A DNA stretch of 64,000 nucleotides from Candidatus Sumerlaeales bacterium (lineage in GTDB: Bacteria; Sumerlaeota; Sumerlaeia; Sumerlaeales; Sumerlaeaceae): positions 86,857-150,856 of the forward strand of contig JBBSQY010000002.1 of NCBI GenBank assembly GCA_038243585.1, given 5' to 3'. The notes below the pieces were generated by a model. That model ran no database searches. It saw nothing but the letters and a program-made list of their open reading frames with translations, and was not told the DNA's origin. This document shows, in pieces, positions 8,693-23,802 of the stretch. Made by a program: the position numbers and the translations under genes. Within the stretch, counting starts at the first letter, position 1. Each line of letters opens with the position of its first letter.

Positions 8693-8902
8693 TATGTGCC
8701 TTTCTTTGTCCGCTGCGCGTGGCGGCATAGTATCTGGGAGAGGGAAGATGATACACTTGACAACAAATCTGATCGACAGGTTACGCGCGTAAAGGCGCAA
8801 GAGTTGATTTGCAAATTATTTTACGCGCTCGTAGGCTTGTTATGTGAAAAATATCAGCCTAAAAGCTAAGGTTTGGGGAATAACCAGTAATAGTTCGGCA
8901 AT

Positions 8903-9676
8903 TTGGAGGGTACAACTATAACAACCATGCCAGCTAACCTGACTTCGACATCACATCGACCCTACCCGCTCCCGGCGGGACGTCCGGTTATGGAAATGAA
9001 CTGGCACGATCTGATGTTTGCCCATTGGCCGCTTCCGGCGGAGGCTTTAAAAAGCCTGGTTCCCCCCGGTCTATCTATCGATGTTTTTGAGGGACAGGCC
9101 TGGATTGGCATAGTTCCGTTTTCTATGTCGGGCGTGCGACGGTGGCCGTTTCCTCCTATGCCGGGAGTTTCGCTATTCCCGGAGATTAACGTCCGCACCT
9201 ATGTGACCGATGGCGATAAGCCAGGCGTGTATTTTTTCAGCCTTGATGCCGCCAGCCTTTTTGCGGTAAAGGTTGCCCGGGCATGGTACCATTTGCCCTA
9301 CTACCATTCAAGGATCACTTCCAGGCGCGACGGTGATACGATCACCTACAGCGCATCCCGCCGCATAAAAACAGGCCAGATGCCAGTGCAATACGAAGGT
9401 GCCTACCGCGCCATCGGCCCCCCAAATTGCGGAGGCTGCGGTAAGCTTGCTCACTGGCTTACAGAACGGTACTGTTTATACAGCGTAAGTCCGCGCGGGC
9501 ATGTCTATCGTGCAGATATACACCATGACATGTGGCCGCTGCAGCTGGCAGAGGCTGAGATTCGGCTAAACAGTATGGTCGCTCCGTTAGGCCTCGTTCT
9601 ACCCAGCGCTCCACCCCTCCTTCATTTTTCCAAACGCCTGGACGTAGTCGCGTGGCAACCGGTAAGGGTAAGTTAA
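8903..9676 (+). CDS. YqjF/DUF2071 family protein
   Basis: WHDLMFAHWP, FPEINVRTYV, PGVYFFSLDA and WLTERYCLY motifs. Confidence 0.9.
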   Translation: MEGTTITTMPANLTSTSHRPYPLPAGRPVMEMNWHDLMFAHWPLPAEALKSLVPPGLSIDVFEGQAWIGIVPFSMSGVRRWPFPPMPGVSLFPEINVRTYVTDGDKPGVYFFSLDAASLFAVKVARAWYHLPYYHSRITSRRDGDTITYSASRRIKTGQMPVQYEGAYRAIGPPNCGGCGKLAHWLTERYCLYSVSPRGHVYRADIHHDMWPLQLAEAEIRLNSMVAPLGLVLPSAPPLLHFSKRLDVVAWQPVRVS

Positions 9677-9807
9677 GCCGAATCTTAGAGTATTGAGAAA
9701 ATAATACTACAAGGTTCTACAGCGCGGGATGACTTGACAGAAAACAATTTGCACTTGAGACGCTAATATACAAAAGCCTATAGTCTAAACCTTACTGGAG
9801 AGCCGCA

Positions 9808-10701
9808 ATGGATTTAATCCGCACTACGCGAGGCGCACTGATTTTTACAGCACTGGCTGTGATGACTCCACTATGGGGACAAACCCCGGATGAAATCGAA
9901 AAAATAGAAAAGGCTATGCCGGCGACTGCAAGGGTAACGCCAGAGAAGCCGCGGCGGGTACTGGTTTTCAGCCAGGCTTTGAAGTTCAAGCACGCCAGCA
10001 TACCTTATGGTGAAAAAGCCTTCCAGATAATGGGAGAAAAGACCGGAGCATTTAAGGCAGATATATCACGCGATGGGGCAGAGCTGACGCCGGAAAACCT
10101 CGCACAATACGACGCCATTATTATAAATAATACCACCGGCGATTTTATTACAACACCAAGCCTGCGGCAGGGGCTGCTGGACTTCGTGAGCAGTGGCAAA
10201 GGAATTGTCGGTATTCATGCGGCCAGCGACAGCAACTTTTCATGGGAGGAATATGGAGAACTGATTGGCGGATTTTTCGTGAACCACCCGTGGACCTCTA
10301 AGACAAAGGTAACTCTTAAAATTGAAAACCCGGATCATCCTGTCAATCAGGCATTTAAGGGACCGTCGTTCGAGGTAACAGACGAGATCTATCAGTTCCG
10401 AGAGCCATATTCTCGGGAAAAACTGCTCGTACTTGCGAGCCTGGATACCGAAAAAACGGATATGCAGAAGAAAGGGATCGAACGCACAGACAATGACTTC
10501 GCCGTTAGCTGGGTGCGCGAATGGGGCGATGGTCGCATTTTTTACTGCTCGCTTGGCCACAATCCTGAAATATTTTGGAATCAGACGGTGCTGCTGCATT
10601 ACTTGGATGGGATACAGTTTGCCTTAGGAGATCTGAAGGCTACTGCGTCAGCGTCTGATAACAGTAGCACGCAGACCGTTGCAATGCCGCGATCCAATTA
10701 A
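9808..10701 (+). CDS. ThuA-like domain protein
   Basis: FKHASIP, GIVGIHAASD, DEIY and GRIFYCSLGH motifs; signal peptide. Confidence 0.88.
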   Translation: MDLIRTTRGALIFTALAVMTPLWGQTPDEIEKIEKAMPATARVTPEKPRRVLVFSQALKFKHASIPYGEKAFQIMGEKTGAFKADISRDGAELTPENLAQYDAIIINNTTGDFITTPSLRQGLLDFVSSGKGIVGIHAASDSNFSWEEYGELIGGFFVNHPWTSKTKVTLKIENPDHPVNQAFKGPSFEVTDEIYQFREPYSREKLLVLASLDTEKTDMQKKGIERTDNDFAVSWVREWGDGRIFYCSLGHNPEIFWNQTVLLHYLDGIQFALGDLKATASASDNSSTQTVAMPRSN

Positions 10702-10892
10702 GCTGGTTTCTATGATGGTGCTAAGACCAGAAAAAGACTGATCTACTACATCGCCTTATATGTGCATTGCGTATAGGGCAATAGGGTAAGATACTATCTT
10801 CCCCATGTTTATATTAAGACTTAGCAGGTTGCATGGCTATACTGACACGGCCAGGTTGCGTCGAAATCAAATACGCATGTTTGATTGAACAT

Positions 10893-12488
10893 TTAGTTAT
10901 GAGAAGCCGGCGATTCTTCCAGCAGGTCGCGACCTTCTTCTGGGCTTCTTGCATGCCGAGCCTGCTGTTCTACGCTCTCTGAGTCACTATCCAAACCACC
11001 TTCCCCAAGGGCAGAGACAGCCTCAGTCTCGGCGGGTATTGGCTGCTTTGGTCGTGCTGCCGTTTGAGTATGAGCAGTAGAGACTTCGGCAGGCAGGTCT
11101 TTATCAGAGAGCACTCCAGCATCTTCCCGTGTAATGCGAACAACAACTGGAACCTCCTTGTTTACAATCACTTCACGAGCCTCGTCCGGCATGGATATTC
11201 CATTGTCTTGGAACGTTTTTTTAACCATGCGAATGACTGATGAGCGAACTTTTAGCCAGCTGTGCTTCGTACCGTCGAGCCAAAAATAGATCTTGAGATT
11301 TACTGTGGATGGCCCCAGATTATCTACTAAAACCCAAGGTTCAGGTTCGCTCAGAACAGCGGGATGATTGCATAGCACTCCCATCGCTACCTCTTGCACT
11401 TCCGTAATTACGTCATCATATCCGATTCCAATTATAAAGTCCTCGCGCCGATTGGGATTACTGGTATAGTTACGAATGGTGCTTTTATAGATTGTGGCAT
11501 TTGGCACCTGAACATGGTTTCCGTCCAGGGTCATCAGTACAGTCGTCCGAACGGTAAGCCGCTGAACCAGACCTGTAACTTCCTCAACCTCGATAAGGTC
11601 ACCCGACCGAAAGGGTCGTTGGATGCTTAGAAAAATGCTGGCAAGAAAGTTTTCCGTGATATCGCGAAATGCGATACCGATAATCAAGCCAATCAATCCG
11701 GTACCACCAAGTACAGTTACCGCCAGTCGGGCCAGACCAACCACCAGCAGTACTACGTAAAGGCAGAGCAGGAATACACCTGCGCCAGCCGCTATGGCAA
11801 CAACTTCGCGCAGTAGAGGAGTCAGGCTTTCTCTGCGCTGAAAGGTTCGCCGGAGAAATCCCGATATCCCAACCGCAGAAAACCATCCAACTACGAGAAT
11901 GACAATGCCAAAAACAATGAGGGGCAATACTCGGACTACGCTGCGCCACAAATTTTTCAAACTCATCAGAGCTGGAGCCGGATCCCAGAGAGGAGGCGCA
12001 ATAACTTCAATTTGGTTTACGACAGCAACAACGTCACGGGTGTTTCGCGCCAAGTCTCCGGCCCACTTCTTTAAAGACTCAGTTTTGGTGCGTCCGGATA
12101 AAAAAGCAACGCCTTCGTCGACGCTGACACTGGGTTTTTCGAACCACTCTGTTGCCAATAAGATTCTTTCTAAACGGCCGGCAATTTCTGTATCGTCTGA
12201 GCCGGGGCGAACCTCAACTTTGTCAGTCAGCACCGGCTTAGCATCTTCCTCTTCACCCGAGGACAGGGTTTCCTGCTTTGGCGCCCCAGGAAGCAACGAG
12301 CCTGGGGAAAGCTGGGCAAAGACCGGAGAATGTCCGAGTACTATTAAAAACACAAAAAACACGGCCAAGTTCCAGCAGCAGACCTTGCAGGATAACTGGC
12401 TATGCCTTCGCGGGAGGATAAGGTTGGTAGTAAACACGGAAACTCTCGCGTGCAATCGCTGTGCCAATGGGCGGTGCGGCATAGTCAC
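10893..12488 (-). CDS. Small-conductance mechanosensitive channel (MscS) with an N-terminal BON-like domain
   Basis: GIAFRDITENFLAS, PFRSGDLIEV and VPNATIY motifs; BON-like VDEGVAFLSG...VVAVVNQIEV segment. Confidence 0.9.
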   Translation of the reverse strand: MTMPHRPLAQRLHARVSVFTTNLILPRRHSQLSCKVCCWNLAVFFVFLIVLGHSPVFAQLSPGSLLPGAPKQETLSSGEEEDAKPVLTDKVEVRPGSDDTEIAGRLERILLATEWFEKPSVSVDEGVAFLSGRTKTESLKKWAGDLARNTRDVVAVVNQIEVIAPPLWDPAPALMSLKNLWRSVVRVLPLIVFGIVILVVGWFSAVGISGFLRRTFQRRESLTPLLREVVAIAAGAGVFLLCLYVVLLVVGLARLAVTVLGGTGLIGLIIGIAFRDITENFLASIFLSIQRPFRSGDLIEVEEVTGLVQRLTVRTTVLMTLDGNHVQVPNATIYKSTIRNYTSNPNRREDFIIGIGYDDVITEVQEVAMGVLCNHPAVLSEPEPWVLVDNLGPSTVNLKIYFWLDGTKHSWLKVRSSVIRMVKKTFQDNGISMPDEAREVIVNKEVPVVVRITREDAGVLSDKDLPAEVSTAHTQTAARPKQPIPAETEAVSALGEGGLDSDSESVEQQARHARSPEEGRDLLEESPASHN

Positions 12489-12560
12489 GCCATACGCATA
12501 ACTTTATATTATACGTGCTGTGGCTAATAATGAATCGAGGTTAATCTGGTTCAGCGCCTC

Positions 12561-13097
12561 TTAGCTGCGAACCATTGAACTTAATGTGGATAAGCTGCTT
12601 TTTTCAGGAGCGTTAGATATGACTGAGAATGTACCGTCAGTTTCTAAGACGACCCCTTCTGCTTCTGTAGACGCCGAGCCACTATTTCGGAGAGCGGACA
12701 GAATTTCAGCCTCCGTTATACGGGCGCGCCGCATGTTACCTCGCAAATACTCGCCTTGATACATTAACAATGTCGGTTCCGATTTTACTAATTTCTCGAA
12801 CTGCGGAAATCTGACAGAAAGCCACGAAACAACAAACTGAAGAGAAGCCAACAGCAAAAATGCCAGGATTCCCTCTAGAATCGCAACATCTTTAGATAGC
12901 ACGATAGTAGCCAAAGTAGAGCCTAGGGCGACCGTTACCACAAGATCGAAAGCGTTCATTTTAGAAAGCGTTCGTTTTCCAAAGGTACGCAACACAGTGA
13001 CTAGTGCAACGTAGCTTACAGATCCAGCAATCAAAACACGAAGCAGTCCATACCATGAATCAAAAAGCATACTTGGCAGCGAATCAGGTAACTCCAT
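12561..13097 (-). CDS. DUF421/YetF family membrane protein
   Basis: GKRTLSKMNAFDLVVTVALGS and VVLETDGTFSVI motifs. Confidence 0.9.
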   Translation of the reverse strand: MELPDSLPSMLFDSWYGLLRVLIAGSVSYVALVTVLRTFGKRTLSKMNAFDLVVTVALGSTLATIVLSKDVAILEGILAFLLLASLQFVVSWLSVRFPQFEKLVKSEPTLLMYQGEYLRGNMRRARITEAEILSALRNSGSASTEAEGVVLETDGTFSVISNAPEKSSLSTLSSMVRS

Positions 13098-13197
13098 ATT
13101 GCGATGTCTCCTTCTGATCGAGCAGCTTCGGGCCTATGCAAAGGAACAGTAACGCGTCTGGTAAGGCTGTAAACTATTGATCTCAATGGGTTTGAAT

Positions 13198-13221
13198 TTG
13201 GTAGCGACGAGTGGAGTTGAA
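13198..13221. repeat. att core, distal copy (duplicated tRNA-Met 3' end)
   Basis: TTGGTAGCGACGAGTGGAGTTGAA is identical to 23725..23748; the match extends to 27 of 28 bp. Confidence 0.95.
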
Positions 13222-13331
13222 GGATTCGTCGTGGTATTGATACCATTAGACATACGCCCTATATATGGCTACTACACTCAATTTACATCCAATCTATTAT
13301 AGTAGTAGTATCAAACAAATTCCCTTCTATA

Positions 13332-13387
13332 GCCACATATACGCCTTAGAGACTTTACCCTATTTACCCTGTTTACCCTGTTCTAAA
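13332..13387. repeat. Left subterminal inverted repeat with 3x TTTACCCTR 9-mers
   Basis: GCCACATATACGCCTTAGAGAC-TTTACCCTA-TTTACCCTG-TTTACCCTG-TTCTAAA; an inverted near-copy lies at 23530..23586. Confidence 0.85.
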
Positions 13388-14529
13388 AACAATGCCAGCC
13401 GGTTAATGACGACGCGCCTTAGCCGGTCCGGATCCATAAGCTCCGCATAATGCTTATCTGTCATCCCTGCCGGTGCATGGCCTATATAAGCGCCATAGTC
13501 TGACAATGCGACGTCGGCCTTTACGCATAGGTTAACGAATGTTTTTCTAACGTCCTTCGGATCCATGTCGGCGTATGCGGGAATGTCGAAATCCGCCGCC
13601 ACGCTATTGAGTAGCCGGCGCAGGCTTAATCCAACGCTGTGGTGGGTCGCGTCAAATCCCTCGGTGTTCGTGACTACCAGCGCCTCAGGGGCCATCCTAG
13701 ACAGCTCAGCGGCCATCCATGCAGAGACTGCCGGCAGGATAGGAATGGATCGCGCACGATACTTGTTTTTCGACAGCTTAATGGATAGCATATTGCTTGT
13801 GAAATCGAAGTCGCCGACGCGCAGGCGGATAATTTCTTTAATGTTACACCCTACCAAACAGCCTAGAACAACAGCCCGTGGGATCGCACGGTTGACGCGC
13901 ATATTAGCGCATCCCCATAAAAGCGCCACCTGGTCAGCGTTTATGTAGTTTTTCTCCGGTGTGGATTCATCGGTTAAAAATCCGCTCTGGATTACCAGGG
14001 GATAGTACCGGCGCGGATCTGATCGTGCCTGGTTCTTTGCCGTCATAGTCAGAACGCCGATGTAGTGCCGTATGCTCTTTGGCTTTAATCCCTGGTCATG
14101 TAGAAATTTGACATAATCCTGTGCTACCGCGCCCGTGACTTTTTCCCAATATGATATGTTGGGGCCATCACCTTCTAACCAGTTTATGAAGTATTTTTCA
14201 AACCTGCGAAGATCCGCACGACGGTCATCTGTTTTGGCTCTGGCGTGCGTAATGGCTTTTCTGATAGCGTCGCCGATTAGGTCGCCGTCCATCCGGTCCA
14301 TAACATGAGAAAAGCGGGAGCCTAGAATGTCCCTAAGCTCCCGCGCCATCTTCTTCACTTCATCCGGCAGGGTAATTCCTGCCAGTTGCTTTTCCGTCTC
14401 CGCTTTTATGCCGGTGCTCTTCGACAGCCGTTTACCGGCAGTATCACGATAAACTAAATAGTAGCGCTTATCACTACTCTGGATCCTTATAGTAACGGCT
14501 CCGATTTTTTCCACTGTTCGCAGGGTCAT
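13360..14529 (-). CDS. Tyrosine recombinase/integrase
   Basis: N-terminal arm-binding-like YYLVYRDTAGKRLSKSTG; box I-like GCNIKEIIRLRVGDFD; SKNKYRARSIP; DVRKTF; IGH...MTDKHY with the catalytic Tyr; adjacent to att. Confidence 0.88.
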   Translation of the reverse strand: MTLRTVEKIGAVTIRIQSSDKRYYLVYRDTAGKRLSKSTGIKAETEKQLAGITLPDEVKKMARELRDILGSRFSHVMDRMDGDLIGDAIRKAITHARAKTDDRRADLRRFEKYFINWLEGDGPNISYWEKVTGAVAQDYVKFLHDQGLKPKSIRHYIGVLTMTAKNQARSDPRRYYPLVIQSGFLTDESTPEKNYINADQVALLWGCANMRVNRAIPRAVVLGCLVGCNIKEIIRLRVGDFDFTSNMLSIKLSKNKYRARSIPILPAVSAWMAAELSRMAPEALVVTNTEGFDATHHSVGLSLRRLLNSVAADFDIPAYADMDPKDVRKTFVNLCVKADVALSDYGAYIGHAPAGMTDKHYAELMDPDRLRRVVINRLALFLEQGKQGK

Positions 14530-14761
14530 GCTTTTTTTGTTTCATCCTGACTGGTTTTAAGTCAATACTGGTTTTGGGATGGAGCAGGCTTTCCACTCTC
14601 TGCCGGCCTATTTCGTCCAAATAGTGAATGATGGTCCCGCCCCAATACCTGCCCCGAATGGTAGCCAGGGGCGCACATTCGTCAGCGAGTTTGCGGCCTA
14701 GCATTATTTCGAGCTCAGCAGCGCCATACCAGCGGTATGGGCGAATGATAGGTTTAAGCAT
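14474..14761 (-). CDS. Small hypothetical protein, possible excisionase/DNA-binding protein
   Basis: Overlaps both the primase stop and the integrase start; WYGAAELEIMLG resembles the start of an HTH. Confidence 0.55.
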   Translation of the reverse strand: MLKPIIRPYRWYGAAELEIMLGRKLADECAPLATIRGRYWGGTIIHYLDEIGRQRVESLLHPKTSIDLKPVRMKQKKHDPANSGKNRSRYYKDPE

Positions 14762-17267
14762 GATTCACCGCCTGGGGGTTCATGTGGTACACTCTGGCAG
14801 GCTTCTTTGCCCCTGGTGATAGAATCTCCGCTTTGCGCAGGATGTGGCGCTCTTCAAGGTAGGAAAGCGCCTCGCTGAATATGCTTTCGTTTTTCATGCG
14901 CTTCTTTACCCGGTCCCACAAATCCGTGTGGCGGATGGGTGATTCTCCGGTACTGCCGGCAAGGTTGCGGATGTGCCTAAGTGCATATTTAGCATTCGAC
15001 TGGACCGGGAGCTCCTTCACGATGCCGAGCACCTGGTCCGCACGATACAGAAAATATGTTCCCAGCGTAATCGCGCTTTTCATCGTGTCAGCCGATATGG
15101 TCCGCCCTGCGTAATCGATGGGGAATTCTGCTACGTGCAGACACGCCGCCAGGCGAAGGATCCTGCCGGCATGTTTAGCGCCCCACTGTGCAATGTCCTC
15201 TTCGCCGAAGTCACCCGTATCTGGGCAAAGTTTAGGCATGAAGTCTTGTCTGAAAGTACGAAATTCAGCAGCAGCGCCATCACTGAGTTTTAGGACTACA
15301 CCATCGTTCGTATCATTTAGCAGGTGCGTAATTGTTTTAAGGTATTTCTGTTTTATCGCCTCATCGATGGGGGGCGCATCTACTTTATAATTTGCAAAGT
15401 CAATGCTGCCACGCAGAAGGATATAACGCTGGATTACGCCGAGCCCTGTAAATGTGTCCTGGTTTATAACGCCGTCAAATGGCTTCGGTTGCACAAACTG
15501 CACGACAGATAAAAGTGGCGCTTCAAGTGTTTCATTCCCACCTGAAACGCGGTCCCGGACGTGCCTCTCTCCGTCATAGCATTTGGGAAATAATGTGCAT
15601 GAGCTTTGCCCGTTGCTATACATCCCACCCATCACGTTAAACAGTTTGGAAGACTCAGCAGAAATAACGATCCCGCTTTCCCTGTTTTGCTTTTCGCCTA
15701 ATGGCTTGAATAGTGATTCTTCGGTGAAATCCTCATATATAAGCCGCCTTGCATTCCGAGCCGGTAGGGCGTCCAATTCCGTTTCAAGGTCCGTGAGCTC
15801 CATTGCCAGCATTTTACGATCCGCAGAAGTGGACGCCTTATTTACTTTTCGCACAACAGCCGCCTGCCGTGCGACAATTATCTTTTCTTCGTTGCCGGCA
15901 AGGATCCGCTCTTGTCTGGATTCGAGCTCATTCTGTTTTCCCCAAAGAACGGCAGGTTCTGAAATGGCTTCCAATGTCGCTGATTTTGTAGCGCCTGGGG
16001 GAAAGATTACCATCACCCATAAGTTTGTGTTTTCCTGCCAGTTTGTTTTGCCTTCAATTATCACACGCCGCTGGATCGTAGACGATAACATCCCCAACGC
16101 AATGGTCGCGGTTACTTCTACCGGCACGTTCTGTTGAACAGCCAGCTCCGCGGCGAAATCTCTTAACCAGGGTGAACCGTCGAATGACTGTAAGGGGAAC
16201 GTCTCCGCGTCTTCGCCAAACATCTCACCCGGCGCTACCTGGTCAATGGATATCAGCTCCGGCCATTCCTCGACCTGGGCAACCGCCGGCTCCCATAGAA
16301 CAGCTACCTTTAGGCGCTCATCATAACTCATTCCTGCCGGCTCTGGGTCGGCCAGGTCTTGGCCTTTTTCCATGCCATCGGTCGGCATGATCCGCACCCG
16401 CGTATTCATCTCATAAAGGTGTGCGGCTAGTCCGTCCATCGCATCAGTGCCAGGCTCGTCAGCATCAGGAATTAAGAAGCCTTCAGAGTTCGCCAGTAGG
16501 CGCCAGTCTGTTTTGTTCCATGTTCCGGCGCTACCTTGCCAGGTGAGTATTAACAGATCAGGCCAGCGCTCCTGTGCGGCCTCCATTGTCTTGTGCCCTT
16601 CACATATTGCCCACGGCCTGGTATCTCCAGCAGCAATCTTGTCAGCCCCATAGAACGGCTTATTGTCCAGGCTACCGTGAAAGTGCCAGCCAGCTTTATA
16701 TTTTCTGCCTTCGTGGGTGTGTTCTGTGTCGTAGTAGTAGCACGGTCTGAATTGCTTACGGTCAAACACTGGGGGATTGTCCCATCGGTAGTCATAATTG
16801 AACAGCGTGCCATCAGAATTTAAGAGGGTGTAGACGTGATCCGGCTTGCCTAATTTGTAAGCTTCTTTTGGCGGTGCAATATCTTCCGGCGGGTTACGAT
16901 TTATGTTGCATATATCTGCCGGCAGGGGTGTAGTTTTGGTAATCCTTGTCGGGATACTTTTAGGTTTTGCCTCGGTTCGCGCCGGGGCAATTTCTTTTTT
17001 TGGGGGGCTTGTGTTTGTCGCTGTGTTCATCCGGTGGTTGCCTCTCAAATCGTCTCTGAAGTGGTCTGCTATTTCTTTGGTGGGGCATTTCATGGTAGTG
17101 CACTTGAACATCACATCCCCAGACTTCGCGCTATCCCATACCAGGCAGTTTAAGCCGCTGCCCTTATGGATGGGGCAATTGATCCTGTAGCAGCCTTTAG
17201 CGTCCGGTCTGGTAGATCGTGCGCTGCCGTTGCCGTACCTGTCGGCAATGTCTGCCGCGTTCATCAT
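14754..17267 (-). CDS. Primase (Zn-finger + Toprim) fused to a DUF3987/YfjI-like domain
   Basis: CPIH...FKC zinc-binding motif; Toprim ICEGHK...PDADEPG...KGQDLAD; C-terminal NLWVMVIFPPGATKS, DFTEESL, YDGE...RDR and GRILRLAACLH typical of DUF3987. Confidence 0.88.
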   Translation of the reverse strand: MMNAADIADRYGNGSARSTRPDAKGCYRINCPIHKGSGLNCLVWDSAKSGDVMFKCTTMKCPTKEIADHFRDDLRGNHRMNTATNTSPPKKEIAPARTEAKPKSIPTRITKTTPLPADICNINRNPPEDIAPPKEAYKLGKPDHVYTLLNSDGTLFNYDYRWDNPPVFDRKQFRPCYYYDTEHTHEGRKYKAGWHFHGSLDNKPFYGADKIAAGDTRPWAICEGHKTMEAAQERWPDLLILTWQGSAGTWNKTDWRLLANSEGFLIPDADEPGTDAMDGLAAHLYEMNTRVRIMPTDGMEKGQDLADPEPAGMSYDERLKVAVLWEPAVAQVEEWPELISIDQVAPGEMFGEDAETFPLQSFDGSPWLRDFAAELAVQQNVPVEVTATIALGMLSSTIQRRVIIEGKTNWQENTNLWVMVIFPPGATKSATLEAISEPAVLWGKQNELESRQERILAGNEEKIIVARQAAVVRKVNKASTSADRKMLAMELTDLETELDALPARNARRLIYEDFTEESLFKPLGEKQNRESGIVISAESSKLFNVMGGMYSNGQSSCTLFPKCYDGERHVRDRVSGGNETLEAPLLSVVQFVQPKPFDGVINQDTFTGLGVIQRYILLRGSIDFANYKVDAPPIDEAIKQKYLKTITHLLNDTNDGVVLKLSDGAAAEFRTFRQDFMPKLCPDTGDFGEEDIAQWGAKHAGRILRLAACLHVAEFPIDYAGRTISADTMKSAITLGTYFLYRADQVLGIVKELPVQSNAKYALRHIRNLAGSTGESPIRHTDLWDRVKKRMKNESIFSEALSYLEERHILRKAEILSPGAKKPARVYHMNPQAVNHA

Positions 17268-17494
17268 TTCTTTTCCTCAATTCTGTAATGCCCGCCGCTG
17301 TGATTCCAGCAGTGTGATAATCGGTGGTCGGGGTCGGTGAATTCCGGCTTCGTCCCGGTGCCGCCGCCGTGTCGGTGTGGCTCTCGGCAGTAGGGGCATT
17401 GTCCTATCAGCAGCCACATACTGCTGTAACGTGACCACTCAGCCCGGCAGTAGAATACCGGCAGTTGTTCCTCGGTGTCGATGGTGGTGGTCAT
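17264..17494 (-). CDS. Small Cys/His zinc-binding protein
   Basis: CPYCREPHRHG...HRLSHC; ATGA-coupled to its neighbours. Confidence 0.65.
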   Translation of the reverse strand: MTTTIDTEEQLPVFYCRAEWSRYSSMWLLIGQCPYCREPHRHGGGTGTKPEFTDPDHRLSHCWNHSGGHYRIEEKK

Positions 17495-17703
17495 CGTTCG
17501 CCACCGCCCAAACCGACAGATCCGCGACGCAGGCCCCAGCGCTCCAAGGCTTTTTCCAGTGAATCAGCATCGACGCGCCGCCGGATGCGGAAAACTGGAT
17601 AATCTGGAACAGTGTTATTATGATAATCTGCCCAGTGATGAAAGGCGTTTGGACTACTGAAACCGGCAAGTTTTGCCGCCGACGTGATGGAGATCAATTT
17701 CAT
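17491..17703 (-). CDS. Small HTH-like DNA-binding protein (paralog of 17700..17918)
   Basis: MKLISITSAAKLAG excisionase/AlpA-like start; 4-bp overlaps with both neighbours. Confidence 0.7.
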   Translation of the reverse strand: MKLISITSAAKLAGFSSPNAFHHWADYHNNTVPDYPVFRIRRRVDADSLEKALERWGLRRGSVGLGGGER

Positions 17704-17918
17704 TTGGTCGCCTCCCGCTTGCCTTGCTTTGCTGCCGAACGTGCATGTGCTTTCCGAATGATCGCCGCCTCGATAGAATCCAAATCGACCCGGTTACCAC
17801 ATCTCAAAATTGGATGTGCTGGAAAATCTGCCTCGTACCGGCCAAGCCAGTTGTTAAACGAGTTCTTGCTTACATGACCCGTAAAAGCCATTGCCGCGTC
17901 TAATGAAACGAAACGCAT
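17700..17918 (-). CDS. Small HTH-like DNA-binding protein (paralog of 17491..17703)
   Basis: ATG at 17918 preceded by a GGAGG RBS; aligns end to end with the downstream ORF. Confidence 0.7.
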   Translation of the reverse strand: MRFVSLDAAMAFTGHVSKNSFNNWLGRYEADFPAHPILRCGNRVDLDSIEAAIIRKAHARSAAKQGKREATK

Positions 17919-18029
17919 TATGCTGCCTCCTGTGTAACTGAAAATTAGTTTCAACCCGCATTAACGACAGTCGGCTACAGGTGGGCGCAAAATAGTTGAA
18001 ATAGTTGTGGTGGGTCGCCCGGCGGGATG

Positions 18030-18059
18030 AAAAAAGCCCCCCGGCGCTTGCCAGGGGGC
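18030..18059 (-). terminator. Intrinsic terminator inside the element, upstream of the replication operon
   Basis: Minus strand GCCCCCTGGC-AAGC-GCCGGGGGGC-TTTTTT, 5 nt after the stop at 18065. Confidence 0.8.
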
Positions 18060-18064
18060 AGTGG

Positions 18065-18280
18065 TTAAAGCGCCTCGACTTCATCCGCCACGGCTCTGAG
18101 TTTATCCGGCAGGTGATCAGCCAGGTGCCGGGCTTCCTCAATGCAAAGCCAGGTAACTTCACCGCGGACTTCCAGGGCAACCAAAGGGATTCCCCCACGG
18201 TACTCGACATAAACTTCAATCCCGTGATCTTTGAAAACATCTTCGCCGGTGAAAACAGGTCGCGTGGTGGTGGCGGTCAT
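18065..18280 (-). CDS. Hypothetical protein (71 aa)
   Basis: ATGA overlap with the upstream ORF; followed by a terminator. Confidence 0.6.
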   Translation of the reverse strand: MTATTTRPVFTGEDVFKDHGIEVYVEYRGGIPLVALEVRGEVTWLCIEEARHLADHLPDKLRAVADEVEAL

Positions 18281-18612
18281 AGCGCTACCGCTGTGAAAAA
18301 CAGATCGGCATCAGCGTCGCGCTTCTCTATGTCATCGCGAAATTCGCACATTGATTTCAATGCGGTATCACGTCCGCTAACTACGGCATTATAGTAGTCG
18401 CTTAAGTCTTCCGAATCCATCAGCGGAATTCTAATCTGGCGAAACAGATCATACAGAATCGTGGCAATGGGTGCAAACTTTGCCAGCATCTGCTCTTTTT
18501 CTTCCCGTGAAAAAACTGCTGAATCTATCACGATAAACTCAGGACGTCCGAAATCAATCTGACTTTCGTTCTCTCTGTGGGTAACGGGGTTTGTTGCGTT
18601 AATCGTGGACAT
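18277..18612 (-). CDS. Hypothetical protein (111 aa, acidic)
   Basis: ATG with an AAAGG RBS; coupled to the downstream ORF. Confidence 0.6.
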   Translation of the reverse strand: MSTINATNPVTHRENESQIDFGRPEFIVIDSAVFSREEKEQMLAKFAPIATILYDLFRQIRIPLMDSEDLSDYYNAVVSGRDTALKSMCEFRDDIEKRDADADLFFTAVAL

Positions 18613-18853
18613 AAAAAAATCAACCTTTCGATACTTCGTGGTTGACGGAGACTGACACGCACCTTCAGGAATGCGTATAGGTCATTCGGTGTGCAATCAC
18701 CGTCTTGACTCAGGCCCTGGGTTGCGCTGAACACGCTTCCTGGGGCCGCTTATTTATCCGGCATGGTCTTACTGCCGGGCGTTGGCAAGAGAAATCGACA
18801 TCACGGCGCGATTCCAGCCACTCTGAGCCACTTTAGCAGTTGCCTGCGTGTGT

Positions 18854-18979
18854 TTGCACCGTCGGCACATGAACGAAAGCCAGCGGGCAATGATTGGCGC
18901 GAAGATCGCCAATATGGTGCGGGGTGAAAATCAGCATACGCAAATTTGCGGAACCATATCCCAATCCGACGCCGCTGAA
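18854..18979 (+). pseudogene. Fragment resembling phage ParB-like/HTH proteins
   Basis: Translates as LHRRHMNESQRAMIGAKIANMVRGENQHTQICGTISQSDAAE, matching the NLHRRHLxxSQRAM...SQxxAA pattern; no N-terminal domain is present. Confidence 0.55.
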
Positions 18980-18981
18980 CA

Positions 18982-20475
18982 TCATATCCCCATCACTTCA
19001 TGACCTGGATTCCGTTCATTCAGCGTGAAGTTAATCGTGGATTCCTGCCCGGCGCGTCCGGTATTGGCCCGGTTGGCGGCTTGCGTCGCGTGAATATCCT
19101 CATTCGACATCCCGCCTCCCTGCAACGCACCAGCACCGAATTTTGCAACCATGTCAGCCTGTAGCTTTTTATCTTTCGTGGCATCCATCGCCGTTTTACC
19201 ATGCGCCCTTAACCAGTTGTCCACGACGGCATTTGTGGAAATAGCTGTCTGGTTCATCGGGTTGGCGCGGTCGCTGTCGGCCGGGTACCGCGCCGTTGTC
19301 TTCGCATCATGAGCCGCTACCTTGTCACGGTAGCCCGTTTCATTCGCAGCAAATCCAGCCGCTTTTTCGCGCGCTTTTGCAGCCATCTCATCCGCGCCGA
19401 ATAAGTCATAGACATTAGCCGCAAGATTCTCCGACTTGCCCATAACACTATTATTAAACGCCCCGGCTTTGTTGTCCAGGTTCTTAATGTCACCGGCTTT
19501 TTCAGACATCGAGGAAACCAGCGCCGCAGCATTTACAGCAGCGGTGCCCAGGAAGTCAGAAAACGCCTTCGCGTCTTGCCCCATCTCTGCCCAATCAATG
19601 CTTTTGATCGTGCCGAACAGGTCTTTGGCGCTGTCTGCAATGTTCTCTCCAAATGCTTTGGTAAACTCGTCAACACCCATCTTCGCGTCACCGCTGATAT
19701 ACTGCACGAAGTCCACCAATTCGCCTTTAATGACATCAAACAAGGGAGCCGTCGACGCCTGCTTCATGTTATCGAAGAATGATCCCGCCGTGCTGGATAG
19801 CCCTTCCCATGTCGACGCCATCTGCATAACCAGTTCAGGCCCCGCGCCCATTTGTTTCAGTGCAGCATTGATCAGCTCCATACCCTCGAGGCCCTGGGCT
19901 TTTAATTCTTTTATAACACTACGAGATATATCAAACCGGCTTTGTAAACTTACATAGTCCCCGCCCATAGCCTCACGGATAGAGAATGCAGCACCTTCAA
20001 GCCCCTGCGCCGGATTAAGCGCCGCCAGAACTTCCGCAGTCTTAACCAACTTCATCAGCTCTTCGCGTGAACCCTTCGCGCTGGAAATCAGCGCTTTGCC
20101 CGCTGTGATCATCTCGCCGGTGTCGAACGGCGTAACGTCAGCTTCCGTGCGAAGATCCATTACAATCTGTTTTGCAAGCGCCGCGTCCTTCGTAAACGCT
20201 GTAAACGTCGCTGTGGCCTGCTCAATCGAACTGTTGAGCGCCAACCCATCTTTCACCATGGAACCAAACGCGACACCCGTAGCAGCCGCCGCAACACCCG
20301 CAGCAACGCCCATCCCGGCCAGAACCTTCGCAGCCGGTGCAAACGCTTTCGCCACAGCCCGGCCTTCAGTCATTGCGTTATTCTTAAACCGGGTGAAACC
20401 TGTTTGCGCGCTCACTATACCCGCGCGAAATTCGGCGGCGTCTAATTTAACTTTTGCTGTGACTTCTGCGCTCAT
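18982..20475 (-). CDS. Short tail tape-measure-like protein (497 aa)
   Basis: Ala/Gly-rich and helical; N-terminal VTAKVKLDAAEF; tape-measure domain pattern IEQATATFTAF...ADVTPFDTGEM...ASTWEGLSST; GAAAGG RBS. Confidence 0.75.
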   Translation of the reverse strand: MSAEVTAKVKLDAAEFRAGIVSAQTGFTRFKNNAMTEGRAVAKAFAPAAKVLAGMGVAAGVAAAATGVAFGSMVKDGLALNSSIEQATATFTAFTKDAALAKQIVMDLRTEADVTPFDTGEMITAGKALISSAKGSREELMKLVKTAEVLAALNPAQGLEGAAFSIREAMGGDYVSLQSRFDISRSVIKELKAQGLEGMELINAALKQMGAGPELVMQMASTWEGLSSTAGSFFDNMKQASTAPLFDVIKGELVDFVQYISGDAKMGVDEFTKAFGENIADSAKDLFGTIKSIDWAEMGQDAKAFSDFLGTAAVNAAALVSSMSEKAGDIKNLDNKAGAFNNSVMGKSENLAANVYDLFGADEMAAKAREKAAGFAANETGYRDKVAAHDAKTTARYPADSDRANPMNQTAISTNAVVDNWLRAHGKTAMDATKDKKLQADMVAKFGAGALQGGGMSNEDIHATQAANRANTGRAGQESTINFTLNERNPGHEVMGI

Positions 20476-20490
20476 AACGAATTACCTTTC

Positions 20491-20531
20491 AAAATAAAAA
20501 TGCCGCCTGGGGCAGAGGGATCCCAGGCGGC
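20491..20531 (-). terminator. Intrinsic terminator immediately upstream of the tape-measure-like gene
   Basis: 10-bp stem GCCGCCTGGG/CCCAGGCGGC followed on the minus strand by ATTTTTATTTT. Confidence 0.65.
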
Positions 20532-20640
20532 GATTCGCGGGGAAACGAGCGTAAACCCGCGAAGATAAAATAAGTTGGACGACGGCTAACCCTCGCCGAT
20601 TAGCCGCCGCCCGCTCTTGACGGTTTCCCATCAAACTTTG

Positions 20641-20820
20641 TTACCGCCTGCGTACCAGGTCAGCCAATGGATCAGGCGACCTTGCATTGTCCTGGACGCG
20701 CTGGGTGTCGATATCCGTGCCCGCGCCCAACGAGGATAAACTCGAAAATCGCTGGACAGGTTCCGCCGATTCGTCATCAGCAGGTTTTGGCTCTTCTATG
20801 TCTTGGTAAAAATCTCTCAT
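20641..20820 (-). CDS. 59-aa acidic peptide (not in the ORF track)
   Basis: ATG at 20820 with a GGAAAG RBS, TAA at 20641; MRDFYQDIEEPKPADDESAEPVQRFSSLSSLGAGTDIDTQRVQDNARSPDPLADLVRRR. Confidence 0.55.
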   Translation of the reverse strand: MRDFYQDIEEPKPADDESAEPVQRFSSLSSLGAGTDIDTQRVQDNARSPDPLADLVRRR

Positions 20821-20988
20821 AATTTAATCTTTCCGAGTAGACGGACGCCTCTTCCAAGACGCCCGCCCAACCCTATTTCGGAGCTATGGACGCAACGACA
20901 ACGGCCATATTTTGACCGCCGGGCTACGCGGTTGAAGGTGTGCCCGGCGGCCTGATTCGTTCGCAGCAGGCAAGCGAATCAAACGTGA

Positions 20989-21999
20989 TTACGGAGTCTC
21001 ATCAGCGCTTATAAGGATAGAAGCCGGATAGCGGTCAGCCTCTAACGGCTGTGCCACTGTGACCGGGTTCGCCGTACAAAAGCCAATTCGCGCGACCGCT
21101 TTAATTGCGATAGAGTCAGCTTGCATGAGATTCAGCATAATGTTTCCCGCCAAATCTTGGATCACGCCATCTTTGTGAACGCTGATATGGAGTTCCTCAC
21201 GGACGCCCACCAGGTGTTTTGTGCGGTCGAACATGATCATTTCAATGTCGGACGCGTCGGGGTTCTGTGGCGGGAAAACTCCGTCGACCCCGAAGGAAAT
21301 TTCACGACCAAACAACCGGCCTTCCAGTGCCTCGCCGCTCTGAAGTTCCTCGGGAATGAAAAGCGGGCGTCCGAGCGTATCGGTTTCCGACATTAAATCG
21401 TACTCGAACCCCGGCCTAGCGATAGCGCCATTTAACTGGAAACCATCCCGGCGCGACATCTTTAGCACGTTCATAATGTCCGTGCGTAGACCACCATTAG
21501 CCGCCGCCGTGTCGATAACCGTCACGTTACCGGCGCTCATCGCACCAGCAGCAACATGAGCCGGCCAGACAATCGGCTTTTCAATTCCGAAGAAAATTGC
21601 CTTATCAATTGCCATCGCGATACTCTGGGCAATCGCCGGAATTATTTCTTCCGTGAGATTGATCCCTCCAGCCTGAATGTCAGACATCAGCCGGCGCGGA
21701 AATGGTATGATGACGGCAATGTCGGCCACGTTCATGTCAATATTGGCCCATGATACATCGCTCGTCTGGATAAGCCGGGTATCATCTTCAGGTGTGCCGG
21801 TTTGGGTTAGCCAATAAGATTTCGGCAGCGCCGTCATAACCGGGAAAGATTTGTTCTGCGTCAAAATTGGAACGTGCTTGAAGAACCGCAATGCGGCCGA
21901 CTGTTGCGTCGCCATCTTGAAAATTTTGTTGGAATGTTCGCATGGAACAAGGCCACCGGCAGAGGTTGCGTTGCGGTCTGTGATATCGTTGAAAGCCAT
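20989..21999 (-). CDS. Phage major capsid protein (HK97 fold)
   Basis: GGLVP..S.KI, IAVIIP, IA.AIDKAIFFG, DTLGRPLF, LFGREI and NLMQADSIAIKAVARIGF patterns; AAGGAG RBS. Confidence 0.88.
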   Translation of the reverse strand: MAFNDITDRNATSAGGLVPCEHSNKIFKMATQQSAALRFFKHVPILTQNKSFPVMTALPKSYWLTQTGTPEDDTRLIQTSDVSWANIDMNVADIAVIIPFPRRLMSDIQAGGINLTEEIIPAIAQSIAMAIDKAIFFGIEKPIVWPAHVAAGAMSAGNVTVIDTAAANGGLRTDIMNVLKMSRRDGFQLNGAIARPGFEYDLMSETDTLGRPLFIPEELQSGEALEGRLFGREISFGVDGVFPPQNPDASDIEMIMFDRTKHLVGVREELHISVHKDGVIQDLAGNIMLNLMQADSIAIKAVARIGFCTANPVTVAQPLEADRYPASILISADETP

Positions 22000-22090
22000 G
22001 AAAGTGGCTCCTTAATAGGGAGATCGCGGGAGGAATGGAATAGCCTATCAGTTACCTGTCAGCCATGACGTTTCAACCGCGTCGCCTTTA

Positions 22091-22609
22091 TTAACGACAG
22101 CTTGCTTCCAGGTCGCTCCCAATAATCCGATTTTGCATCATATCTGATAGTATTTCCGGCTGTGCAAATAAAGCCGTCCCGAAATCCTGTAGGCTTGCGA
22201 AAAGAGCACCCTCACGACGCCACGCACGACGCCGCATTTTCAGAATATCCATCGCCTTATTTTTCGCGGATCCGAGAAAAAACGAATTCACGCTGCCGCT
22301 AAATTCAAACCCGGCAACCGGTAACCCGGTTCGCGGATTGAGACGCCGGCATTGTTTAGGTTTTGCGCTCTCGAGTAGGTGCATCAAAATTTCATTTCGT
22401 GCGTCGTCTTGATCCTCCTGCGACAGTGAAACCTTGTACGCCCATTGCTTCGCCAGTGGTAGCAGCAGGGCCGCAACGTCAGCCAGCAGGAATTCATTCT
22501 CTGGATCCCGCCGCAGCGCCACAATAGCGGCCTCCAGGTCAATGGCCTGTTGTGCGAAATCAATCACTGCGTGATGGCTACGGGGAGCGCAAACAGCAGG
22601 CATAAGCAA
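22091..22609 (-). CDS. Sigma-70 region-2-like protein lacking region 4
   Basis: LLPLAKQWAYKV...EDQDDARNEILMHL...SVNSFFLGSAKNKAMDILKMRRR resembles ECF sigma region 2. Confidence 0.6.
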   Translation of the reverse strand: MLMPAVCAPRSHHAVIDFAQQAIDLEAAIVALRRDPENEFLLADVAALLLPLAKQWAYKVSLSQEDQDDARNEILMHLLESAKPKQCRRLNPRTGLPVAGFEFSGSVNSFFLGSAKNKAMDILKMRRRAWRREGALFASLQDFGTALFAQPEILSDMMQNRIIGSDLEASCR

Positions 22610-22684
22610 ATCCTTTCTTGTGTAAATGCTTACCCGTACCCGCCGCTTTCATGCAAGGTGAATCCGACAGTCAAGAGAAAAAAA

Positions 22685-23290
22685 TTATGCTTTCACCGGC
22701 GGGGCATCGCCCATCTTTTCAGGCATATAGTCGCTGAAGTCCATCGTATCGCCGACGCATCCAGTTTCTACCCACTCCCTGGGCGGCAAACCAACATGGA
22801 CGAACGTGATCGGGGTCTCCGTGTCATCCTTCGCCACAAGTTCCTGGTAGGCCTGAAAATCTTTGCTCAGCCGTTGGTCATAACTAATCCGGGCCTCGAG
22901 TAGCTTCCGTTTTTCCGATGTGTAAAAGCGCTTATCCGCCATTGTCTCAGCATCAGCCAGGCATTGATCAAGACGAAGGGCCTCCACATCCAGCGCCACA
23001 AGCGTGTTTTCGTGCCGATCCAGCATGAAAGCCAGCCGCGCCTTGCCACTGGATAGACTCTCAGCCAGGTTCACCGGATCGCCCTCGGCAATAGCCAGAA
23101 CAATCGCCGGTGTATGCGAATGTACCCTTGCCGTAGTCTTACCCACCGGCGGCTCATCGCCACGAACCCGCGCACGGTACCGCCGTTTACTGTCAGCCCG
23201 GCATTTCTTGCAATCGCCCGCAGCATAACGCTCTGAGGTGCCACACTTCGCGCAAATCTTGTCATTATCCATGCCAGGTATTAACGCCAT
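22685..23290 (-). CDS. Zn-finger (CxxC...CxxC) coiled-coil protein, possibly terminase small subunit-like
   Basis: CAKC...CKKC N-terminus, helical middle and a terminal beta-strand-like PITFVHVG; first gene of the structural block. The function is inferred from position only. Confidence 0.5.
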   Translation of the reverse strand: MALIPGMDNDKICAKCGTSERYAAGDCKKCRADSKRRYRARVRGDEPPVGKTTARVHSHTPAIVLAIAEGDPVNLAESLSSGKARLAFMLDRHENTLVALDVEALRLDQCLADAETMADKRFYTSEKRKLLEARISYDQRLSKDFQAYQELVAKDDTETPITFVHVGLPPREWVETGCVGDTMDFSDYMPEKMGDAPPVKA

Positions 23291-23529
23291 TCGTACCCAC
23301 CGGCCACGCTGTACCCATGATTTTCACAAAAAGCCAAAAATCTCCCGTTTCAGTGCTAGCGAGCATTGGCCTATACCAGCTACAGGGGTGCCCCGGCCTT
23401 GTAATAGTTACAACCGTTGTGTGGTGCCCTGTGGCGGCTGTGGTGGTGGTGCTACTCGGATCAGTGCCACGCGGTGCGGTGTGTTGTGTGTGTGGTGGTG
23501 CGCCGGCAGTGGTGGTTGACGTGCGTTGG

Positions 23530-23586
23530 TTTAGCAATAGGGTAAATAGGGTAAACAGGGGAACTCTCTTAAAGCGTATATGTGAC
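23530..23586. repeat. Right subterminal inverted repeat with YAGGGTAAA 9-mers
   Basis: The reverse complement GTCACATATACGCTTTAAGAGAGTTCCCCTGTTTACCCTATTTACCCTATTGCTAAA aligns with 13332..13387. Confidence 0.85.
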
Positions 23587-23724
23587 ATCACCACATACGC
23601 CCTACACCCAGTTTACACCCAGTTGTTCGTGGTGTGGTGGGTGTATCTTGCCTGTACCTTCAATGTGGTTAAAGTGGTTATCGCTTGATATAGCTGGGGA
23701 TCAGGTAGTTGGGTGATAGGGAAA

Positions 23725-23748
23725 TTGGTAGCGACGAGTGGAGTTGAA
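23725..23748. repeat. att core, copy within the intact tRNA-Met
   Basis: Identical to 13198..13221. Confidence 0.95.
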
Positions 23749-23802
23749 CCACTGACCTAAGGGTTATGAGTCCTTCGCTCTAACCACCTGAGCTACGCCG
23801 CC
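23726..23802 (-). tRNA. tRNA-Met(CAT), probably elongator (Ile2 not fully excluded)
   Basis: GGCGGCGTAGCTCAGGTGGTTAGAGCGAAGGACTCATAACCCTTAGGTCAGTGGTTCAACTCCACTCGTCGCTACCA; cloverleaf, CAT anticodon, encoded CCA. Confidence 0.93.

Follow-up and report, generated by a model that had tools for sequence, protein, structure and literature searches.

Satellites were held to remodel only the heads of their helper phages until the PLEs of Vibrio cholerae were reported to build chimeric tails with their own tape-measure protein (TMP), TAC and BhuB (Mathur, Boyd et al., Nature 2026, PMC12987554). The PLE11 TMP is present in virions and shortens tails by 10 nm, and its deletion lowers transduction by ~99.9%; predicted tmp genes also occur in some cf-PICIs (Extended Data Fig. 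10 legend) and in PLE-like elements (PMC12987554). The EPIPs of Mycolicibacterium aichiense are satellites of ~11 kb with a TMP, and their tails are longer than those of the helper (Qian et al., bioRxiv 2025, PMC12822802); the preprint is inconsistent on whether a capsid is encoded. TMP-bearing satellites, namely PLEs, EPIPs and some cf-PICIs, are already published. The five-component PICI model of SatelliteFinder forbids tail genes and has a median size of 9.5 kb (de Sousa et al., NAR 2023, PMC10085698), and VEIMEs are described in excerpts of PMC9618062 as lacking capsid genes. Small portal-less HK97 genomes rarely carry a TMP, with one case on record (PMC13669383), and the main text of PMC10111431 contains neither 'tape measure' nor 'TMP'. 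Among the papers listed on satellite TMPs and satellite models we found no description of exactly the layout reported here, with a capsid gene and a TMP gene but no recognised chaperone; supplements may list some.

Here we describe an element of this layout in a window of 64,000 nucleotides (the whole stretch of DNA analysed) from a Candidatus Sumerlaeales bacterium. The element is intact, spans 10,527 bp (10.5 kb) between 28-nt repeats and is inserted at tRNA-Met. Every recognised gene of the element is on the minus strand. From attL the order is a 201-aa ORF, a 172-aa ORF, an HK97 capsid gene, a 59-aa ORF, a structured spacer, the TMP gene and two small ORFs; onward from a hairpin (18036..18059) come three small ORFs, a DUF3987 primase, a 95-aa ORF and a tyrosine integrase. 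Its features, from attL to attR, are as follows.

23721..23748, minus strand: attL, within the 3' end of tRNA-Met (23726-23802)
23523..23584: partner arm, at the opposite end of the element from the arm at 13334..13395
22685..23290, minus strand: 201-aa ORF with a Cys-rich N-terminus, a helical hairpin and a conserved C-terminal segment
22091..22609, minus strand: 172-aa ORF faintly resembling sigma-70 region 2 (E 0.086), possibly a late regulator
20989..21999, minus strand: HK97-fold major capsid protein, 336 aa (PF05065 E 1.6e-11; phrog_10 E 4.5e-27; TIGR01554)
20641..20820, minus strand: 59-aa acidic ORF with a ribosome-binding site (RBS)
20476..20640, minus strand: structured non-coding spacer with four hairpins, one of them terminator-like (20612-20577)
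18982..20475, minus strand: tape-measure protein, 497 aa, with an ATG start and a ribosome-binding-like GAAAGGT 8 nt upstream
18277..18612, minus strand: 111-aa ORF downstream of the TMP gene, no family match
18065..18280, minus strand: 71-aa ORF, no family match
18036..18059, minus strand: strong terminator-like hairpin that closes the capsid-TMP module
17700-17954 and 17491-17703, minus strand: two paralogous small ORFs of 84 aa and 70 aa (~33% identical), no family match at the cut-off, resembling small DNA-binding regulators by eye
17264..17494, minus strand: 76-aa Cys/His-containing ORF
14754..17267, minus strand: Primase-DUF3987 replication protein, 837 aa (PF13148 E 3.9e-62; phrog_2373, phrog_239)
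14474..14761, minus strand: 95-aa ORF preceding the integrase, by its position a possible excisionase
13360..14529, minus strand: tyrosine integrase, 389 aa (phrog_1 E 9e-22; PF00589 E 1e-5)
13334..13395: arm carrying short tandem repeats, in inverted orientation to 23523-23584 (62 nt, 74%)
13194..13221, minus strand: attR, a duplicated 3' end of tRNA-Met, 27/28 identical to attL

A 23-nt att core occurs only twice in the genome, at attL and at attR, and the inverted arms are likely integrase arm-binding sites. A genome of the same genus (G002) has the identical site, consisting of a fabZ-like gene and two tRNA-Met genes that follow the same two host genes. In this genome no homologs of the element proteins were found in ~15 kb beyond the tRNAs, which indicates that the element is an insertion. 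The satellite setting proposed in the original prediction holds, with an integrase, a primase and a capsid gene inside an att-bounded insertion. Between attL and the first gene lies a Thr/His-rich low-complexity stretch with short repeats (23265-23594, minus strand, and 23430-23517), which is probably non-coding. Beyond attR, the region 8000-13100 encodes a DUF421/YetF protein, a mechanosensitive-channel-like protein (by eye) and other genes; the DUF421 gene was not found in five relatives with the query used, so the flank on the attR side may be accessory DNA. In Rfam, only the two tRNAs reached significance.

Among the 18 ORFs of the element, searches of Pfam and PHROGs recognised no portal, large terminase, adaptor, connector, tube or chaperone. 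No lysis gene, Dit or Tal was recognised either, and the small ORFs had no match to AlpA, MerR or Stl regulators at the cut-off. The TMP gene is flanked by the 59-aa ORF and the capsid gene on one side and by the 111-aa ORF on the other, rather than by a chaperone, Dit or hub gene; the small ORFs beside it have no chaperone match in Pfam or PHROGs, where a very divergent chaperone could escape. The original prediction had noted this absence of the usual tail neighbours. Its description of the gene as stand-alone is limited to tail genes, because the capsid gene lies only 513 bp upstream in the same att-flanked element.

Sequence comparison identifies the 497-aa ORF as a real gene for a tape-measure protein, rich in Ala (18.5%) and Gly (9.1%) as predicted. 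The protein has a TMP-type N-terminus, one hydrophobic segment near residues 50-75 (the 19 residues from position 51 average a hydropathy of 1.8), a TMP_3-like core (~77-260), a variable helical region (300-470) and a clade-specific C-terminal end formed by a strand and then N-P-x-H-x-V-M. The profile search suggested at the outset was blank for the protein itself, with no tape-measure model matched in Pfam, PHROGs or NCBIfam and no family in PADLOC, but succeeded for its homologs, six of the 14 scanned matching PF20155 (TMP_3) at E values of 6e-8 to 0.019, all under the curated cut-off. Family libraries evidently overlook TMPs of this kind. In tblastn the protein matched 35 phage records, and 28 of the 30 matches listed fell inside annotated tape measure genes, the best (E 3e-9) covering residues 107-193. 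An AlphaFold model is all-helical, with a mean pLDDT of 54 and values of ~70-87 at residues 80-220. The top entry for this model in a Foldseek search of BFVD was a tape-measure protein (E 1.5e-6, with TM-scores of only ~0.3), and a search of the PDB gave no match. Among 50% representatives, 1341 relatives of the core domain are found. We examined 12 of the 75 viral loci returned with a broad TMP alignment; in eight of these, tube, chaperone, completion, connector or Dit families were among the scanned neighbours. No sheath was present among the 43 neighbour genes scanned, which indicates siphovirus-type operons for the phage relatives. Together the TMP_3 matches of the homologs, the tblastn and Foldseek results and the tail or neck neighbours of phage relatives support the tape-measure identity, homology having been found by profile, indirectly through the homologs, as well as by structure.

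Ten full-length TMPs, 424-497 aa long and 32-65% identical to the query, align end to end. On the core domain alone they form a clade with a FastTree support of 0.937 among 114 sequences (the ten, 44 TMPs from phage loci and the first 60 other hits of 199 candidates) and a UFBoot of 91 in IQ-TREE among 40 sequences, in trees with midpoint or arbitrary roots. In all ten, the C-terminus consists of a strand-like stretch and then N-x-x-H-x-(V/I)-M, a motif present in 10 of the 199 candidates. The support and the motif tests are partly circular, since the clade was at first selected for its resemblance to the query, and the motif itself comes from the clade. Scored by a crude regular expression, nine of the ten have 12-14 residues after the last strand-like pattern, compared with 23-37 residues in 29 of the 44 phage TMPs; one further phage TMP has 10 residues there and 14 have no such pattern. 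This spacing suggests that the usual terminal segment of phage TMPs has been replaced in the clade. A profile of the clade C-terminus scored at best a weak 11.1 bits (P0136) against 189 other C-termini. The 44 phage TMPs measure 493-1694 aa (median 713, near-duplicates included), placing the clade at or below their short end, so that 'short' applies to the protein only as the low end of its family. Loci of the other clade members were found neither in metagenome, genome or viral contig collections, nor in a search of viral contigs with the C-terminal motif pattern, nor in 60 relatives or 74 other genomes of the phylum.

The capsid and the 201-aa protein also have small sets of close relatives. 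The capsid, in which no delta domain is evident, forms with three close relatives a long-branch clade of four members (support 1.0 among 70), and close relatives sought in contig collections were only ordinary phage capsids at 29-36% identity. Phage capsids of the same family have a scaffold gene upstream in 71 of 81 loci, unlike the element, which has none. The 201-aa protein has three homologs at 43-58%. One capsid relative and one 201-aa relative are each listed on a contig of 9213 bp, probably the same contig; no listed TMP relative lies on one of that length. Taken as sequences, these groups suggest a family of capsid-TMP elements. The layout of the 201-aa protein is small-terminase-like and makes it a possible candidate TerS; it matched no terminase profile, its Atlas score was below 0.9, its VIA matches were generic helical hairpins, and Foldseek returned nothing for its model at E 0.001.

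The 165-nt spacer ahead of the TMP gene folds with a z-score of -5.39, and none of 200 shuffles was as stable, whereas folding of the spacer downstream of the TMP gene is no better than chance (z -1.44). A single variant was available for comparison, from a second contig set at ~4.5x in the probable source run. It differs from the spacer at 15 places, of which 12 are unpaired; at one more the pairing is retained, and at the other two an inner 2-bp stem is disrupted. The spacer may be an attenuator that sets the capsid:TMP ratio; an attenuator at this position would suit hundreds of capsid subunits per few TMP copies. Roles for two ORFs in this region were considered and rejected. A profile of 57 phage scaffold C-termini gave the 59-aa ORF -1.2 bits as a mini-scaffold, under many shuffles, and a 50-aa ORF (20482-20634) considered as a chaperone had no match, no RBS and net frame-shifting indels in the variant contig, and was treated as non-coding.

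These data allow us to propose that the protein is a functional TMP of an integrative phage satellite, swapped into the tails of a helper siphovirus as Vibrio PLEs do, and we give this reading a probability of roughly 0.55. It corresponds to the first of the three options in the original prediction, shorter satellite-specific tails; the poison and pilot options have less support. Infection by the helper would cause the element to excise from tRNA-Met and to replicate via its own primase. A late module comprising the possible TerS, the capsid protein and the TMP would then be expressed, and the portal, large terminase, adaptors, tube, chaperones and tail tip would be borrowed from the helper. 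The satellite TMP would displace that of the helper to give chimeric tails reserved for satellite heads, and the capsid protein and possible TerS would redirect head assembly and packaging. Tail length is 0.145-0.15 nm per TMP residue, and the predicted tails would measure ~72-75 nm. Given that the element has its own TMP and capsid but no other recognisable tail genes, it probably inserts its TMP into borrowed tails. In keeping with a satellite are the att repeats at a tRNA, the arm-like repeats, the intact integrase and primase genes, and the small set of close relatives that the TMP, the capsid and the 201-aa protein each possess. Against a tail swap, no chaperone or baseplate hub is recognised, unlike in PLEs, no helper was found, and contigs of the probable source run have flat depth and no attP junction; the C-terminus is shortened after the last strand-like pattern, so the TMP may not dock in a normal tail tip.

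The same gaps could be read as those of a tail-assembly poison, a TMP-derived decoy that soaks up the chaperones or tail tips of a helper or invader and leaves the phage tail-less, acting like the Tai, Tab or Rta defences but by mimicry of a TMP. In its favour are the lack of a chaperone or hub partner, the altered C-terminus and a conservation that is much higher in the chaperone-proximal core (0.69 at residues 101-200) than distally (0.13-0.25 at 301-497); satellites also commonly block tail assembly (PMC11364771). We nevertheless think a poison unlikely. The narrow length band of 424-497 aa with both ends conserved is what is expected of a ruler and not of a decoy, and the gene belongs to the late module, preceded by a hairpin-rich spacer, rather than to a separately promoted cargo slot. 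PADLOC gave no match for 10 element proteins, and Rta is an 80-aa protein described in excerpts of PMC12987554 as other than a TMP.

It is also conceivable, at long odds, that the locus is a decayed prophage from which deletions took most structural genes, the capsid and TMP genes surviving by chance. The capsid gene precedes the TMP gene as in siphoviruses, scaffold, portal and adaptor are missing, and neither excision nor replication is apparent in the contigs of the probable source run. In these contigs the depth was 8-10 over most of the element and 9-14 in the flanks, with no sign of induction, and no attP junction was present; contigs drop rare forms, and rare excision could be missed in them. 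A joint of 13070 to 23726 was rejected as evidence of excision, its 22 letters being the att core common to both ends, as was low depth over part of the TMP gene, which is a hole in the contigs. A second variant of the element is seen at about half depth in run X1 (17211-17261, 18101, 20514-20601), in which the block of small ORFs at 17261-18101 is apparently replaced. Decay sits poorly with the intact state of both att sites, the arm repeats and all ORFs. Between the capsid and TMP genes no neck or tube remnant is recognised; the highly structured spacer lies there instead. Diverged full-length relatives of the TMP, the capsid and the 201-aa protein form groups of their own, and a single conserved TMP clade with a distinctive short C-terminus argues against decay.

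A further point against decay is that similar islands with an integrase and a DUF3987 primase occur in relatives. Seven of the 75 phylum genomes have primase homologs. Of the eight primase loci fetched, three have a related integrase adjoining; none showed the TMP or an element-type capsid. The loci L173-L180 (in G065, G049, G006, G064 and G016) are small islands with a DUF3987 primase. Several have a related integrase, and one carries a clear small terminase (L173:581-1162, PF03592 E 2e-22); they are candidate minimal satellites of the phylum. In the source genome, an integrase 39% identical to that of the element and cut by a contig end (C75:9784-10431) is possibly part of a second related element. 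Profiles of the TMP and of the 201-aa protein matched only the source genome among the 75, and the capsid profile found one weak, different capsid besides.

The source genome also has phage-head genes among its host genes, and so we considered the element as a parasite of these, instead of or alongside a phage. A Mu-type portal, a protease, a decoration-like protein, a capsid and a small hydrophobic ORF lie together on one contig (C67; L195:6496-11009). The capsid of this cassette has a match in 62 of the 75 phylum genomes, nearly always in single copy, and is therefore inherited, pointing to a gene-transfer-agent-like head cassette. A lone large terminase lies elsewhere among host genes (C36; L226:1426-3204), and five further partial matches at 67-77% identity lie at the ends of C4, C27, C29, C51 and C65; 10 of 13 family genomes have a match, G002 and G008 more than one, which suggests a multi-copy gene. 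The head cassette of other families is followed by an adaptor-like gene (L232) and by large proteins of 520-1040 aa with faint tail matches (L230, L232, L234), among which no tube or TMP was recognised.

On this account the element would parasitise the host head system, whose portal, protease, capsid and large terminase lie at separate chromosomal sites, while supplying its own capsid and TerS, and the TMP would be an ejection or pilot protein of a particle with little or no tail. The genome does encode a portal and a large terminase, two parts that the element lacks, the cassette capsid and the large terminase are widespread as described above, and around the head cassette no TMP-clade or tube match was found in eight relatives. 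Set against this, the element capsid belongs to a different clade from the cassette capsid, one that normally uses a scaffold, making a pairing with a Mu-type portal doubtful, and the delivery route is left unexplained, since no tube, sheath or baseplate was found in the source genome. Here a search of the ORFs of the 90%-complete assembly with 26 tail and neck proteins was negative, as were the sheath and baseplate J profiles, whose controls worked; PF07030 had no match, its controls being equally blank. Moreover, the element occurs in one of 75 genomes and the cassette is near-universal. We regard this reading as very improbable, and its strict form still more so. In that form a domesticated, host-encoded head system, and not a phage, would be what the satellite exploits: the element would borrow portal and large terminase, contribute capsid and small terminase, and use the TMP with its remodelled C-terminus as a DNA ejection conduit. 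No such case came up among the papers listed on satellites and gene transfer agents, or in excerpts of PMC9618062. If the inherited head genes of the host were exploited in this way, it would be a new kind of parasitism.

An external siphovirus is a likelier helper than the host head genes, given the different clade of the element capsid and the need of a ruler for a tube. No helper phage was found: the TMP profile matched only the source genome among the 75, three of which have a TMP_3 match, and the 1183-aa tape measure of a prophage in one of these three (L198; G041:C170) did not match the clade profile (E 0.42). In the source genome itself, TMP profiles gave nothing else of note, and no resident prophage TMP was available for the comparison originally suggested. 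The least probable of the readings is that of a superinfection or entry factor, in which the protein works at the membrane in DNA entry, or keeps related phages out, and tail length does not depend on it; TMPs act in DNA entry and this one has its hydrophobic stretch, but ordinary phage TMPs of the family have the same stretch and the gene is linked to a capsid gene.

With a tail swap as the preferred reading, the element can be placed among described satellites. Like PLEs, it is an integrative satellite with its own TMP and, as far as PLEs are characterised in excerpts of PMC12987554, without tube, sheath or fibres. PLEs, unlike the element, carry TAC and BhuB, use the capsid protein of the helper and parasitise a myovirus (PMC12987554); the element encodes a capsid itself, has no TAC or hub that could be recognised, and its phage TMP relatives sit in siphovirus-type operons. 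Compared by description, the PLE core genes are capR, repA, nixI and lidI (V. cholerae, ICP1), and the element replication protein belongs to the DUF3987 type. EPIPs resemble it in their ~11 kb, integrase, small terminase (here a candidate), listed major capsid protein and TMP with no other tail genes, and differ in having a serine integrase, a head-tail adaptor and stopper and often a scaffold (PMC12822802), where the element has a tyrosine integrase and a DUF3987 primase with no adaptor or scaffold recognised.

The size, integrase with att sites, primase-replicase, capsid gene, candidate small regulators, possible TerS and single coding strand are shared with PICIs, whose model, in the excerpted text of PMC10085698, has no place for a tail gene such as the TMP; the gene order also differs from that of PICIs, with the late module at attL and the integrase at the far end. 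A capsid gene of its own and the proposed dependence on helper tails recall cf-PICIs, some of which carry tmp; those need TerL, a portal, a head-tail adaptor and a connector (PMC10085698), none of which is recognised here. The Tai and Rta tail-assembly inhibitors are likewise satellite genes that act on tail assembly, as proposed here (PMC11364771; PMC12987554), but in excerpts of these reports they are not described as TMP homologs, and Rta has 80 aa where the element encodes a full-length TMP. The element is thus PLE-like in carrying a TMP and PICI-like in its backbone, and falls outside both groups as they are defined; satellite models that forbid tail genes would reject elements of this kind. 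With it, TMP carriage extends to a minimal layout, in which capsid and TMP stand without any chaperone, hub or adaptor that could be recognised, and to TMPs of a siphovirus-type family; it also reaches a phylum of which few genomes are available (75 here). A one-gene version with a distinctive conserved C-terminus would offer a simple handle on how a satellite TMP outcompetes that of its helper. What is new beside the published TMP-bearing satellites is that capsid and TMP are combined with no recognisable chaperone, in a host phylum whose inherited phage head genes are tail-poor.
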